Source: Escherichia phage OLB145. Taken from it: a stretch of 64,000 nucleotides of DNA. A program made the position numbers and the translations under genes. Numbering within the stretch: position 1 is the stretch's first letter; every line of letters starts with the position of its first letter. Positions 8,058 through 13,133 of this stretch are shown here, in pieces. The DNA is taken from sequence record MH992123.1; one strand, 5' to 3'. Below the pieces are notes generated by a model. It did no database searches. It was not told the origin of the DNA and saw nothing but the letters and a program-made list of their open reading frames with translations.

Positions 8058-8264
8058 ATGTTTAAGTTCTTAGACCTTATCTGGGCAGTCATTTTGCTGG
8101 TTGCTACAGGCTTTGTATATGGCTTCTTGCTCCCATCAATGATGTCTGCTTTAGACAGCATCATTGTTGTTATGGGCTTGATAGTCTGTATTGTGTGGCC
8201 TCTTATCGTAGGCCGTATCGTTTATCTTACAGTTAAGAAAAGGATGAGAAGAAAGCATGTATAA
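8058..8264 (+). CDS. Small integral membrane protein (two predicted TM helices, 68 aa)
   Basis: Track ORF 8022..8264; ATG at 8058 after GGAG; overlaps the start of the SPFH gene by 8 nt. Confidence 0.45.
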   Translation: MFKFLDLIWAVILLVATGFVYGFLLPSMMSALDSIIVVMGLIVCIVWPLIVGRIVYLTVKKRMRRKHV

Positions 8265-9093
8265 GTATATTGCAGTAGCAATTGCAGGGCTAATCATTGC
8301 TCTAAGTTTAACGAGCTGCTATGACCGAGTTGAACCAGGTAATGTAGGTATTATCGTTAACCGTCTCGGTGAAGATAAAGGTGTGGAAAATGAGGTTAAA
8401 GGTGTAGGCCGTTACTGGCTCACTTGGAATGAAGAACTTTATACATTCCCGACCTTTAAGCAGATGAAGACCTATGATGGTCTGTTCTACTTCCAACTGT
8501 CTGATGGTACTCAGATAGGTCACCAGATGGCTATCAGCTATAAAGTGAACCCTACTAAGGTAACTAATATCTTCCAGACGTATCGTAAGGGAGTTAATGA
8601 AATTACCGAGCAGGATTTACGACAACGTATTGCTGATGTACTTAACAGACAGGGTAACTTGATTAACACTGATACCTTTATTGATGGTGGTAAATCTAAG
8701 CTACTGGATAGTGTCACTGACACAATCCGTAAAGAGATGGAACCAGTGGGGATTGATATTATTGCTATCTCCTGGATTGGTGCTCCTGAATACCCTGACA
8801 ACGTTAAACGTGCCATTAATGCCAAAGTAGAAGCTACTCAGAAAACTCTGCAACGTGAGCAAGAGATTCAGCAACGTGTAGCTGAAGCTAATATGGAACG
8901 TGAACAAGCTAAGGGTGTAGCAGATGCTATTCTGATTAAGGCTAAAGCAGAGGCTGACGCTATTCGTTTACGTGGTGAAGCACTCACCGAGAACCCAAAT
9001 GTAATGCAACTGGAAGCCATTAATAAGTGGAATGGTACATTACCTACCACAATGATTCCTGGGGCTACTACACCTTTCGTTAATGTGAAATAA
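8257..9093 (+). CDS. SPFH/band-7 (prohibitin/HflK-like) domain lipoprotein
   Basis: N-terminal signal with LTSC lipobox; VEPGNVGIIVNRLG and a coiled-coil QREQEIQQRVAEANMEREQAKG region typical of SPFH proteins. Confidence 0.65.
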   Translation: MYKYIAVAIAGLIIALSLTSCYDRVEPGNVGIIVNRLGEDKGVENEVKGVGRYWLTWNEELYTFPTFKQMKTYDGLFYFQLSDGTQIGHQMAISYKVNPTKVTNIFQTYRKGVNEITEQDLRQRIADVLNRQGNLINTDTFIDGGKSKLLDSVTDTIRKEMEPVGIDIIAISWIGAPEYPDNVKRAINAKVEATQKTLQREQEIQQRVAEANMEREQAKGVADAILIKAKAEADAIRLRGEALTENPNVMQLEAINKWNGTLPTTMIPGATTPFVNVK

Positions 9094-9099
9094 CTAAGC

Positions 9100-9130
9100 A
9101 AACCCACCATTACGGTGGGTTTATTTTTTT
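9100..9130 (+). terminator. Rho-independent terminator
   Basis: AAACCCACC-ATTA-CGGTGGGTTT hairpin then T7. Confidence 0.6.
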
Positions 9131-9382: not shown

Positions 9383-9739
9383 ATGGCTCAAGAAAAGAAT
9401 CGTCGTCAGACACTTATCGAACGTATTCAGGCCAGAATCAAATTACAGGACTTAGGCTATACCGTTAATGGTCAGCCTAGTCTCTGTCACATCTGGACTG
9501 GTTCACATTCAGGTAATGGACGTGGTGGGCAATATGGCAGGATTTCCGTGAATGGAGTTACCTCTGCAACTCACATTATTGCCTATACCCATTATCATGG
9601 TTATATCCCCAATAAGATGCAAGTAGACCATCTCTGTAATAACCGTCTGTGCTGTAACCCTGAACATCTTGAATTGGTTACTCACCAAGAGAACCAGAGA
9701 AGAAGGGCTAAGCGTTCTAAATCTAAAGGAAATAAATAA
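9383..9739 (+). CDS. HNH endonuclease (homing-endonuclease-like)
   Basis: H..H...DHLCNNRLCCNPEHLE..HQEN signature of HNH nucleases. Confidence 0.7.
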   Translation: MAQEKNRRQTLIERIQARIKLQDLGYTVNGQPSLCHIWTGSHSGNGRGGQYGRISVNGVTSATHIIAYTHYHGYIPNKMQVDHLCNNRLCCNPEHLELVTHQENQRRRAKRSKSKGNK

Positions 9740-9910
9740 ATGATTAAAAAACTTATTTGTAAACTTATTGCAGCAATCTTAATTAGTATTATTGGTATTG
9801 CATGGGTAATTTCTACGCCAGATAACGTTATGCAACAAATTTATTATGCTGTGTATACATCAACCTCTTTTGTTTGGGTTTATGTAATGTACCGTATTTG
9901 CAGCGACTAA
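9740..9910 (+). CDS. Small hydrophobic membrane protein (about 56 aa), below the track cutoff
   Basis: ATG directly after the HNH stop; two hydrophobic stretches. Confidence 0.3.
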   Translation: MIKKLICKLIAAILISIIGIAWVISTPDNVMQQIYYAVYTSTSFVWVYVMYRICSD

Positions 9911-9939
9911 TACTTAATATAGCTTAACTGGAGAGTAAA

Positions 9940-10998
9940 ATGGCTAGTATTGATTCTATTGCCGTATGTAATCCACGGCAGGTACGTAAATTTGTTGAAC
10001 ACTGTATCCGTTCAGGATTGGTTCCATTTATCACTTCATCCCCTGGCATGGGTAAATCTGCAATTGTTCATCAGATTGCAGAAGATTTTGGCCTGAAACT
10101 GATTGACCATCGTCTGTCTACTTCAGCACCAGAAGACCTGTCAGGTCTGCCTCGTTTTAAAGAAAATGGTCGTGCTGAATTTGCTCCATTTGATGAGCTA
10201 TTCCCACTGGAAGGGGATGCTGTACCTGAAGGATTTAATGGCTGGCTTCTCTTTCTCGATGAGTTTAACTCTGCTCGTAAAGAGATTCAGGCTGCTGCTT
10301 ATAAACTGGTACTCGACCGTATGACCGGTCAGAAGAAGCTACATCCTTATGTAGCTATCGTATGTGCTGGTAACAAAGCAACTGACCGTGCCATTACTAA
10401 TAACCTGTCTACAGCTATGCAATCACGTCTTATTCATCTGGAAATGGAGACTGATTTTGATGTCTTCATGGAAGATGTAGCCATCCCTAATAAGTGGGAT
10501 GAGCGTGTAATTGCATTCCTGAATGCTAACCCAAATAAACTGAATGATTTTGAACCAGACCATCAAGAGAAGACTTTCTGTTGTTCTCGTACATGGGAGT
10601 TCGTTAACAAGATTGTTTCCATTCTCCCACCAGGACCAATTGATAGTGAAATGACTCTACTGTTAGCAGGCACTATCACTTCTGGTGTAGCAACATCATT
10701 CGTCCAGTTTACTCAGGTCTATAGCAACATGGTGTCTTTGAATGAGATTTTGGATAATCCTAAGAAAGCTCGTATGCCTGAAGACAATAACCTGTTGTGG
10801 GCTGTAGTCACTTCACTGATTAACAATACTGACGAAGATAATCATTCGAAAATCTTTGATTACGTTGAACGTATGCCATTTACGTTCAAGGTTTTGTACT
10901 ACCGTTCCGTAGGTAGTCTGGTTCCAGCTTTAGTTAAATTACCGAACTGGCGTGTTGCTGCAATCACATTATCTAAATACGTTCATGGTTCCAATTAA
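9940..10998 (+). CDS. MoxR-like AAA+ ATPase (N4 gp24-like)
   Basis: Walker A SSPGMGKS, Walker B LLFLDEFN; followed by a vWA-domain gene, the usual MoxR partner. Confidence 0.7.
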   Translation: MASIDSIAVCNPRQVRKFVEHCIRSGLVPFITSSPGMGKSAIVHQIAEDFGLKLIDHRLSTSAPEDLSGLPRFKENGRAEFAPFDELFPLEGDAVPEGFNGWLLFLDEFNSARKEIQAAAYKLVLDRMTGQKKLHPYVAIVCAGNKATDRAITNNLSTAMQSRLIHLEMETDFDVFMEDVAIPNKWDERVIAFLNANPNKLNDFEPDHQEKTFCCSRTWEFVNKIVSILPPGPIDSEMTLLLAGTITSGVATSFVQFTQVYSNMVSLNEILDNPKKARMPEDNNLLWAVVTSLINNTDEDNHSKIFDYVERMPFTFKVLYYRSVGSLVPALVKLPNWRVAAITLSKYVHGSN

Positions 10999-11164
10999 TA
11001 AGAAGGGAGTTACAGACCTCCTGTATGTTGCTGGCTTTAACGGTGAAGAAATTACCGTATATGCCCCAAGTCTGGCTGCTGCTAAACAAAAGGCAGTTGA
11101 ATACTTTCGTCCAAAGAAACGTGTAGCCCATACTATTTGGGTTCATCTCGCAGAGGAAAACTGA
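10985..11164 (+). CDS. Small hypothetical protein
   Basis: Track ORF 10952..11164 overlapping the ATPase end; start uncertain. Confidence 0.2.
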   Translation: MVPINKKGVTDLLYVAGFNGEEITVYAPSLAAAKQKAVEYFRPKKRVAHTIWVHLAEEN

Positions 11165-11165
11165 T

Positions 11166-12308
11166 ATGTCCATGACAGATGCTCAATTAACCCGTGAATA
11201 TGACAGATGTCAGGCTAAAGCCTTTATGGGCAAAACTGCTGCATTCTTTGGTTCACTGTTATGTTCCCTGAAGTTCCGTTGGGTAAAAGATGGCTGTGAT
11301 ACAGCACAAACCGATGGTGAGCATCTCGAATGGAATCCTGATTGGTTTGAAAGTCTATTACCTGAATCTCGTGTAACAGTACTTATGCATGAACTATGGC
11401 ATGTTGGCTTACTGCATTCTGTTCGTATGGGTTCTCGTGACCCAGAAGTATGGAATTATGCCTGTGATATTTATATCAACAATCAGCTTATTCAGGATGG
11501 CTACAGCTTTATAGGAATCGAAAATTGCTGGAAAGACCCTAAGTATGCTGGTTGGGCTGAAGAACAAATCTATGATGACCTCATGAGCAAACAGATACGT
11601 CCTCCTAAAGCACATGGTGCTTTTGGGACTGGCTCAGGTGGTGACATGAAATCTTCCACTTCGAAGGCTAGTCAGGTGAATATTGTCAATAATGTAGTAA
11701 GAGCCATGCACCAACAGAAACTATCTGGTGGCTCTTTGCCTGGGGTATTACCTGGAAAAATGGAAGAAGTTATTACTCAATTCCTGAAACCAGTAGTACC
11801 GTGGCAGGTTTTACTTGAACGCTTCTTCAATGACCTGCAAGAAACTTACTACTCATGGCAACGGCCTAATCGTAGATACCCTGATATGTACCTACCATCT
11901 CCTATGGATGATGACGGTAGACTGGAACATCTGGCTTATTTCCTCGATACATCTGGCTCCATTAAACCTAAAGATGCTTTACGCTTTAGCTCTGAAGTGG
12001 CCTATGTAAAAGAGAAATATCAGCCTCAGAAGATGACTCTAGTTCAGTTCACTACAGAGATTGTAGACGAACAAGTCATTGAAGATGGTGATAAGTTTAC
12101 TGATGTCACTATCAAAGGACGAGGTGGTACTAGTCTGGTTCCTGTACGTGAGTGGATTATTAAGCATAAGCCTACTGCTGCCATTATCTTTACTGACTTA
12201 GAAGTCAGACCGATGGAGCCATTGCCATTTGACATTCCTGTCATATGGGTAGTTATTCGTAACCCTGGTGCACAAGTTCCATTTGGGAAAATTATTAACA
12301 TTACATGA
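11166..12308 (+). CDS. vWA-domain protein with N-terminal HExxH putative metallopeptidase-like region (N4 gp25-like)
   Basis: HELWHVGLLH motif; DTSGSI MIDAS-like vWA motif; GAGGA RBS. Confidence 0.65.
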   Translation: MSMTDAQLTREYDRCQAKAFMGKTAAFFGSLLCSLKFRWVKDGCDTAQTDGEHLEWNPDWFESLLPESRVTVLMHELWHVGLLHSVRMGSRDPEVWNYACDIYINNQLIQDGYSFIGIENCWKDPKYAGWAEEQIYDDLMSKQIRPPKAHGAFGTGSGGDMKSSTSKASQVNIVNNVVRAMHQQKLSGGSLPGVLPGKMEEVITQFLKPVVPWQVLLERFFNDLQETYYSWQRPNRRYPDMYLPSPMDDDGRLEHLAYFLDTSGSIKPKDALRFSSEVAYVKEKYQPQKMTLVQFTTEIVDEQVIEDGDKFTDVTIKGRGGTSLVPVREWIIKHKPTAAIIFTDLEVRPMEPLPFDIPVIWVVIRNPGAQVPFGKIINIT

Positions 12309-12314
12309 GGTTTT

Positions 12315-12821
12315 ATGGTTGTTAATGGAAAACTATTGTTAGGTGCTATGCCCATTAAGGGCATGGTTAACAGTAAACTCAGTTCAGGTGAGACTACATT
12401 TGGACTGGGAGAAGCTGGTTATGACATCCGTATTAAACAGGATGTTACCTTCTACCGATTTCTTGGTTTGATTCCCTGCATCAAGATTAAAGATGAAGGA
12501 AAGACCAAGTGGAAGTTTGGCACTTTCACATTAGCTTCTGCAATGGAACGTTTCAATGTACCTGCTGGCCTAGTAGGTATTGTCCATGACAAATCCACAT
12601 GGGCAAGGCGTACATTATCTGTATTCAATACCGTTATTGAACCAGGATGGTCAGGCTATCTGACTTTAGAACTGGTTTATCACGGTCGTAAAAAACTTCA
12701 TATCCCTGCTGGTTCAGGTATTGCTCAGGTCATCTTCCATGAGACAGTAGAGAATACTGCCTACAATGGACGATACCAGAACCAGCCTAATCAACCTGTA
12801 GCTGCTAAGTCAGCTCGTTAA
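12315..12821 (+). CDS. dCTP deaminase / dUTPase-fold enzyme
   Basis: GEAGYDIR and GWSGYLTLELVYHG motifs typical of the dCTP deaminase-dUTPase superfamily. Confidence 0.55.
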   Translation: MVVNGKLLLGAMPIKGMVNSKLSSGETTFGLGEAGYDIRIKQDVTFYRFLGLIPCIKIKDEGKTKWKFGTFTLASAMERFNVPAGLVGIVHDKSTWARRTLSVFNTVIEPGWSGYLTLELVYHGRKKLHIPAGSGIAQVIFHETVENTAYNGRYQNQPNQPVAAKSAR

Positions 12822-13110: not shown

Positions 13111-13133
13111 GCCCACTTTATGTGGGCTTTTTT
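13111..13133 (+). terminator. Rho-independent terminator
   Basis: GCCCAC-TTTAT-GTGGGC hairpin plus T6. Confidence 0.55.

Follow-up and report, generated by a model that had tools for sequence, protein, structure and literature searches.

A core gene pair of N4-like phages encodes a MoxR-type ATPase and a vWA-like partner with a conserved HExxH motif, and is shared with other mobile elements

Results

The gp24/gp25 pair in Escherichia phage OLB145

The DNA analyzed here, referred to below as the window, is a stretch of 64,000 nucleotides from Escherichia phage OLB145 (sequence record MH992123.1), in which we studied two neighboring genes on the forward strand. A preliminary description, made from the sequence alone, had presented them as an AAA ATPase of the MoxR type and a von Willebrand factor A (vWA) protein carrying an HExxH motif. 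Both open reading frames (ORFs) that it reported are present, one at 9940-10998 (+) encoding 352 residues and the other at 11166-12308 (+) encoding 380 residues. The region from 9900 to 12400 shares 99.6% DNA identity with Escherichia phage vB_EcoP_3HA13 and 98% with phage N4, and since gene order and spacing are kept, sequence comparison identifies the two ORFs as the orthologues of N4 gp24 and gp25, the names used hereafter. In the N4 records, gp24 lies at 9938-10996 and is described as “similar to S. coel. protein 1” (RefSeq name “ATPase”), while gp25 lies at 11164-12306 and is described as “similar to S. coel. protein 2” (RefSeq name “HNH endonuclease”). In the record of phage AlfredRasser (Bas69), gp24 is labelled “MoxR ATPase”. 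Among the core genes of N4-like phages, the pair has been listed as “24 Unknown; 25 vWFA domain” and classed as middle transcripts (PMC4193335, Table 3 for the listing), and elsewhere as “AAA+ ATPase EPNV4_gp24; gp25” (PMC7650795, Table 2). The domain reading of gp24 and gp25, a core pair of N4-like phages (Schitoviridae), is thus correct but had already been published.

gp24 is a MoxR-type AAA+ ATPase

The assignment of gp24 (9940-10998, +) draws on a PHROG match, an AlphaFold2 (AF2) model and a Foldseek search. Against PHROGs, the protein matched phrog_1297 (“ATPase”, E 1.4e-136), and its scores against the Pfam families AAA_5 (19.8 bits, cut-off 22, E 8e-4) and AAA (19.7 bits, cut-off 21.2) were sub-threshold. 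Neither gp24 nor gp25 had a match in NCBIfam, and a sequence search of the PDB with either protein returned nothing meaningful. When the AF2 model of gp24 (predicted local distance difference test, pLDDT, 86.5) was compared with the PDB using Foldseek, the top matches were CbbQ (6l1q), NorQ (9qh4, 9qhd and 9qh8) and cso-CbbQ (5c3c), with E values from 9e-9 to 1e-6 and TMt of 0.63-0.68, and MCM, dynein and Lon ranked lower. The model contains a helix-2 insert beta-hairpin at residues 70-82 (strands 70-73 and 79-82) and a pre-sensor-1 strand pair (132-134 and 138-145).

Conservation in gp24 was counted in 37 phage and 64 bacterial homologues. G38, K39 and S40 of the Walker A motif SSPGMGKS (10036-10059, +) are invariant in the phage sequences and present in 63 of the 64 bacterial ones. 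The motif PEDLSGLP (10129-10152, +), defined by PxDxxGLP conservation and placed by the model just before the helix-2 insert hairpin, keeps P64, D66, G69, L70 and P71 in at least 58 of the bacterial homologues. In the Walker B motif LLFLDE (10246-10263, +), D107 is present in all 64 bacterial sequences, with Glu at position 108 in 48 of them and Asp in 16. The same full conservation (64/64) was found for N145 in the AGN of sensor 1 (10366-10374, +), for R163 (10426-10428, +), a candidate arginine finger, and for R217 (10588-10590, +), a candidate sensor-2 residue. With CbbQ and NorQ as its structural neighbors and with ATPase motifs that are invariant or nearly invariant in both the phage and the bacterial set, gp24 bears out the proposed MoxR-type AAA ATPase.

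gp25 joins a domain with a zincin signature to a minimal vWA-like domain

Pfam matches, synteny with N4 and an AF2 model (pLDDT 80) divide gp25 (11166-12308, +) into a putative zincin-like domain and a vWA-like domain: its N-terminal part matched DUF2201_N (“putative metallopeptidase domain”, E 6.4e-86) and its C-terminal part DUF2201 (“VWA-like domain”, E 2.2e-46). The HELWHVGLLH sequence noticed before corresponds to HExxHxxxxH at residues 75-84 (11388-11417, +), associated in the model with helix 66-81. An HExxH motif is by itself weak evidence, its chance expectation in a protein of gp25 composition being about 0.01, so conservation was counted in 38 phage and 78 bacterial homologues, the bacterial set being about 27-30% identical. 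H75, E76, H79, H84 and D101 are invariant in the phage homologues, and in the bacterial ones H75, H79 and D101 occur in 78 of 78, H84 in 76 and E76 in 70. Because it is conserved across these homologues, the HExxH of gp25 is not a chance occurrence. D101, a candidate additional metal ligand, belongs to the segment WNYACDIYIN (11451-11480, +) on helix 93-110, where W96, N97, A99, D101 and N105 show no variation, either among phage or among bacterial sequences. In the model, strands 36-39, 47-49 and 53-56 precede the HExxH helix 66-81, which is followed by helix 93-110 with D101, and this predicted order of secondary structure fits a zincin.

Two gp25 homologues (P0249 and P0244) carry inteins, detected with Pfam Intein_splicing (E 5e-11) and Vint/Hint (E 1e-5), which have the canonical Cys1, C-terminal His-Asn and +1 Cys. 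The insertion point lies between A99 and C100, that is, between the WNxA and CDxxIN halves of the motif, corresponding to 11460-11465 of the window. Because the inteins insert exactly there, we regard this motif as a functionally critical site. The name “HNH endonuclease” given to gp25 by RefSeq and PHROG was rejected, as the Pfam search found no HNH domain in gp25, and the label has probably spread through the family from its intein-bearing members.

Between the two domains, pLDDT and the alignment delimit a variable, low-confidence linker with helices at approximately residues 150-250 (11613-11915, +). Its pLDDT ranges from 48 to 83 per 10-residue block and stays below 62 over residues 191-250, and in homologues the linker varies greatly in length and takes up inserts rich in G, S, P and D. 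The remainder, residues 256-380 (11931-12305, +), forms a minimal vWA-like domain with the Rossmann-like alpha/beta fold of vWA domains. Its MIDAS, the metal ion-dependent adhesion site, is complete (DxSxS...T...D), consisting of DTSGS at residues 261-265 (11946-11960, +), T322 (12129-12131, +) and D344 (12195-12197, +). D261, S263, S265 and T322 are present in all 78 bacterial homologues and D344 in 77, and all five are invariant in the 38 phage homologues. The preliminary description had not listed this complete motif; its vWA domain in the partner of the ATPase is upheld by the DUF2201 match, the vWA matches in structure searches and the intact MIDAS.

The pair is a widespread module of mobile elements

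At 50% identity and E <= 1e-3, the gp25 family comprises 21,390 clusters. Homologues of gp25 were found in 674 phage records, mostly of N4-like phages but also of rV5-like (about 137 kb) and jumbo phages (about 350 kb), and homologues of gp24 occur in 832 phage records with the same spread. Outside phages, gp25 homologues are encoded in 75 plasmids, 30 of them conjugative, and at more than 570 bacterial genome loci. Profile searches placed a gp24-type ATPase upstream and on the same strand at about 65 of 80 bacterial loci. The ATPase also lies upstream of the gp25 homologue in N4, LUZ7, a roseophage and a jumbo phage, and in rV5-like phages it is found no more than 3.5 kb away, on the opposite strand. 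The MoxR-vWA pairing proposed from the window, where the two genes are adjacent, therefore extends to all phage lineages examined and to most of the bacterial loci, and it is not due to chance. Taken together, gp24 and gp25 are a widespread mobile-element module common to several phage families and conjugative elements, a distribution that we report here.

A third protein, helical and of about 285-315 residues, is encoded at about 60 of the 80 bacterial loci, mostly in the interval separating the two genes and sometimes just beyond it (for example, L014:4991-5932, L083:8013-8942 and L020:5138-5989), which makes the bacterial versions three-component systems. It gave only weak matches to DUF3150 and to apolipoprotein-like helical repeats, and an iterative hidden Markov model search found no phage counterpart of it in the window or at the rV5-like locus. 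Two candidates for such a counterpart were rejected. One, the “anti-sigma factor” gene that rV5-like phages carry upstream of the peptidase, matches PHROG families of HNH and Srd type and has no relation to the third protein. The other, LUZ7 ORF38 (153 residues), which occupies the slot between the two genes, is related neither to the bacterial third protein nor to the small N4 ORF in that slot described below. The third gene is also lacking at all eight loci of a Desulfobacter-type clade whose gp25 homologues have lost E76 (L012, L027, L033, L034, L035, L042, L051 and L079); in most of these, the ATPase gene directly adjoins or overlaps the vWA gene, and in L079 70 nt separate the two.

Three sets of records among the matches stood out. 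A 727-kb contig of Mesorhizobium yinganensis contains an N4-type adjacent pair with 46% identity to gp25 (L004), and an N4-like element may have integrated or been co-assembled there. The gp25 of the window is 69% identical to a protein encoded on a 69-kb contig (L003) that was binned as an “archaeon” metagenome-assembled genome but probably represents an N4-like phage placed in the wrong bin. The match coordinates and coverage of “Campylobacter phage A140, A13b, A12a” (135-141 kb) equal those of rV5-like coliphages, with near-identical scores for both proteins, so these records may be mislabelled or may be rV5-like phages.

Genomic neighborhoods of the pair

In N4-like phages, the pair sits in a middle-gene block of replication and nucleotide metabolism. 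It is followed in LUZ7 by a DNA helicase and a DNA polymerase, and in the roseophage it stands between RNAP2 and genes for dCMP deaminase and thymidylate synthase. In the jumbo phage EC.P1, the adjacent pair is located 1.6 kb upstream of thymidylate synthase. Neighbors at the bacterial loci are genes of conjugation and DNA processing and include VirB4/TrbE, VirB11, PRTRC/ThiF, a Mom-like protein, RNase H and Sipho_Gp157, as well as RadC, beta-clamp, ATP-dependent ligase, RecT, Rad52, TraM and Strawberry-notch-type helicases. A conjugative Burkholderia plasmid carries, in order, PRTRC genes, six unnamed genes and a DUF3717 gene, the ATPase, the third protein, the VWA-like protein and VirB11/B2/B3/B4. 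The plasmid and integrative elements that carry the pair build no virion.

Within the window, a 59-residue ORF (10985-11164, +; phrog_19202, E 2.1e-33) lies between gp24 and gp25; it has a 14-nt overlap with the end of gp24, and its stop is 1 nt ahead of the gp25 ATG. It is annotated in AlfredRasser as bas69_0056, falls inside the interval of the preliminary description, which had not mentioned it, and is missing from the N4 record EF056009; otherwise, nothing of substance differs between the N4 pair and that of the window. Terminator-like hairpins with T-runs at 9100-9122 and 13111-13127 bracket gp21 to gp27, including a dCTP deaminase gene. Because strong hairpins flank this block, the sequence suggests that gp24 and gp25 are co-transcribed with the HNH gene gp22 and the dCTP deaminase gene. 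A scan of the window for sigma-70 promoters gave matches no commoner than in shuffled sequence, and these were not used. Of the other genes nearby, gp22 (9383-9739, +), just upstream of the pair, encodes an HNH_3 homing-type endonuclease (E 9e-20), and gp20 (8257-9093, +) encodes an SPFH/Band 7 protein (E 2e-23) with the RefSeq name lipoprotein.

Discussion

A proposed ATP-driven remodeller with its own protease

Building on the ATPase fold and motifs of gp24, the vWA fold, MIDAS and invariant metal-binding residues of gp25, and the pairing and genomic context of the two genes, we propose that gp24 and gp25 may constitute a two-part, ATP-driven MoxR-vWA protein remodeller with a built-in zinc protease, working in the cytoplasm in the replicative phase, and we give this proposal a probability of about one half. 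By analogy with NorQ/NorD and CbbQ/CbbO, gp24 would form a hexameric AAA+ ring on which gp25 docks through its vWA domain, the MIDAS metal site would hold an acidic residue of the target protein, and ATP hydrolysis would tug at the flexible gp25 linker and the target. The conserved motifs suggest that cleavage by the N-terminal HExxH domain might follow, either of the target or of gp25's own partner. We favor a MIDAS-targeted protease and remodeller driven by ATP because gp25 combines a NorD-like three-part layout with a zincin signature. Given the genomic company of the pair in phages and plasmids, we further suggest that it acts in the cytoplasm during the establishment and replication of the incoming mobile element and not in virion building. 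This argument from context, which we add here, favors a role that is not purely structural.

Several points weigh against this proposal. The metallopeptidase-like N-terminal domain suggested in the preliminary description has been only partly borne out: the DUF2201_N match and the invariant HExxH, H84 and D101 speak for it, whereas two whole-model structure searches with gp25 listed vWA matches only and left the zincin fold unconfirmed. A profile built from phage and bacterial gp25 sequences produced weak matches to HtpX (3cqb, E 0.054), the minigluzincin MJ1213 (E 0.27) and an M48 peptidase (3c37, E 0.43), in which the aligned part is the strand and helix around HExxH, and bacterial homologues had sub-threshold Pfam matches to SprT-like (E 0.003), Peptidase_M48 (E 0.004) and M78/IrrE (E 0.11). 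These matches are mutually consistent, but all are below significance and none is significant singly. In 8 of the 78 bacterial homologues, E76 is replaced by T, L or I (HTVMH, HLVMH, HIVMH) with the His ligands kept, and therefore metal binding, and not catalysis, may be the universal feature of the domain. The inter-domain geometry of the gp25 model is unreliable (predicted template modelling score, pTM, 0.54), its vWA domain is stripped down to 125 residues, and the genomic context amounts only to guilt by association. Moreover, a search of the literature on DUF2201, DUF3150, PRTRC, N4 gp24/gp25 and Schitoviridae MoxR, vWA or metallopeptidase proteins found no functional study of any family member. 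Finally, Iyer et al. (2021; PMC7824862), who described a MoxR-(metallopeptidase-vWA) pair in group 2.2 jumbo phages, proposed a role in virion assembly with peptidolytic processing, drawing on the analogous case of Acidianus two-tailed virus and its MoxR-vWA pair.

Alternative explanations

Following that proposal, the pair would be a chaperone for the assembly of virions or other large machines, folding and assembling structural proteins and trimming them by proteolysis. The proposal was made for the same architecture, and the pair of EC.P1 belongs to the same families as gp24 and gp25. In addition, N4-like roseophages have some virion-protein genes near their gp24/gp25 homologues (PMC4193335), and the module of the Burkholderia conjugative plasmid lies directly upstream of type IV secretion genes. 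However, the N4 pair was reported as middle class and not late (PMC4193335), its neighbors in four phage lineages belong to replication and nucleotide metabolism and not to a structural module, and most bacterial copies lie among DNA-processing genes of elements without a virion, where the module is not consistently beside secretion genes. We consider an assembly role rather unlikely.

Also unlikely, and a little more so in our estimation, is a protease for counter-defence or host takeover, which, shortly after entry of the element, would recognize a protein of the host, for instance an immunity factor or one bound to DNA, and destroy or disable it. The occurrence of the module across unrelated virulent phages (N4-like, rV5-like and jumbo), conjugative plasmids and integrative elements would suit such a role, as would neighbors such as RadC, the Mom-like protein, helicases and PRTRC genes, gene types that characterize the regions with which conjugative elements establish themselves. 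Anti-defence genes are usually accessory and variable. The pair, in contrast, is a strict core of all N4-like phages, whose hosts differ widely (PMC4193335, PMC7650795). Host proteins have been suggested as targets for other jumbo-phage zincin peptidases, namely SprT-like and ArdC-like ones (PMC7824862). For gp24, gp25 and the 59-residue ORF, a PADLOC search gave no match at E <= 0.01, and no escape or sensitivity phenotype has been reported for the pair.

A more speculative thought, which we hold to be quite improbable, is that the module serves as a general “arrival” machine of mobile DNA, common to several unrelated families of virulent phages and to conjugative plasmids and integrative elements, in which a MIDAS-targeted zincin protease powered by the AAA+ motor would strip or destroy a protein on the incoming DNA so that replication can start. 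The target might be a conserved DNA-binding factor of the host, or else a protein that is injected or serves as pilot (the N4 virion RNA polymerase or a conjugative relaxase, for example), and in the bacterial versions the helical third protein might act as adaptor or substrate. If this were true, the module would be a prokaryotic counterpart of the clearance of DNA-bound proteins of the Cdc48-Wss1/SPRTN type.

Metal insertion or enzyme activation is the task of the MoxR-VWA pairs NorQD, CbbQO and CobST (PMC9976466, PMC13036017), and on this precedent gp24 and gp25 could be a chaperone for metal-cofactor insertion, with HExxH, H84 and D101 holding a metal ion for delivery to an enzyme of the phage or plasmid instead of hydrolyzing peptides. 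We retain this explanation because one clade has lost the catalytic Glu but kept the metal ligands, the ligands being more strictly kept than E76 across the family, and enzymes of nucleotide metabolism that contain metals are encoded next door in several phages. We nevertheless find it quite improbable. E76 is kept in all 38 phage and 90% of the bacterial sequences, the sequence around HExxH resembles peptidase active-site helices, and no conserved client enzyme is common to the phages and plasmids. The last explanation, a conflict or exclusion module aimed at competing elements, recalls the vWA-MoxR ternary immunity systems, among which versions with a peptidase domain fused to the vWA component have been described as conflict systems (PMC7159879), and it would agree with the third conserved component of the bacterial versions, but it is very improbable in view of the missing PADLOC match, the core-gene status of the pair in strictly virulent phages and a third component that is a plain helical protein without an effector-like domain.

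Significance

The pair belongs to the approximately 14 genes common to all N4-like phages, a large group used in phage therapy and in research on defence systems. Its substrate, once known, would fill a gap in the N4 life cycle, and the pair could show how a MoxR-vWA motor that carries its own protease acts. The finding itself adds no new biology beyond published annotation, and its value is a well-posed experimental question. To the published annotation we make modest additions: the spread of the pair over phage families and conjugative elements, the third component of the bacterial versions, the inteins within the WNxACD motif, and a genomic context that speaks against a purely structural role.

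Comparison with known systems

Within the DUF2201_N/DUF2201 family, whose proteins are named “VWA-like domain-containing protein” or “predicted metal-dependent peptidase”, gp25 is a full-length, high-scoring member. The closest described arrangement is that of the jumbo phages. The EC.P1 pair has the same architecture and adjacency as gp24 and gp25, matches their profiles with E values of 2e-41 and 1e-44, respectively, and keeps HExxHxxxxH and DxSGS, whereas its proteins are only about 26% identical and are larger (442 and 469 residues).

In NorQ/NorD, a finger of the VWA domain plugs the pore of the hexamer, mutagenesis indicated that the MIDAS motif binds the client and not the ATPase, and the motor twists and stretches the disordered NorD linker that runs from the N-domain to the VWA domain (PMC9976466, PMC13036017). 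NorD and gp25 share a three-part layout of N-domain, linker and vWA domain, the linker of gp25 being variable and modelled with low confidence. The N-domains of NorD and CbbO are not described as peptidase-like (PMC9976466, PMC13036017), whereas that of gp25 bears a zincin signature. The VWA domains of NorD and CbbO are also about twice as long as the vWA domain of gp25. In NorD and CbbO, this domain carries a finger that enters the pore. Furthermore, NorQD and CbbQO serve defined cellular metallo-enzymes, while gp24 and gp25 sit on mobile elements.

AAA+ motors coupled to zincin proteases are represented by FtsH and by Cdc48/p97 with Wss1/SPRTN. The logic of a remodeller ring combined with an HExxH protease would be common to these systems and to gp24/gp25, with homology demonstrated no further than the zincin motif. 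Unlike FtsH and the Cdc48 pairs, gp24 and gp25 would couple motor and protease through a vWA/MIDAS adaptor carried on a separate polypeptide.

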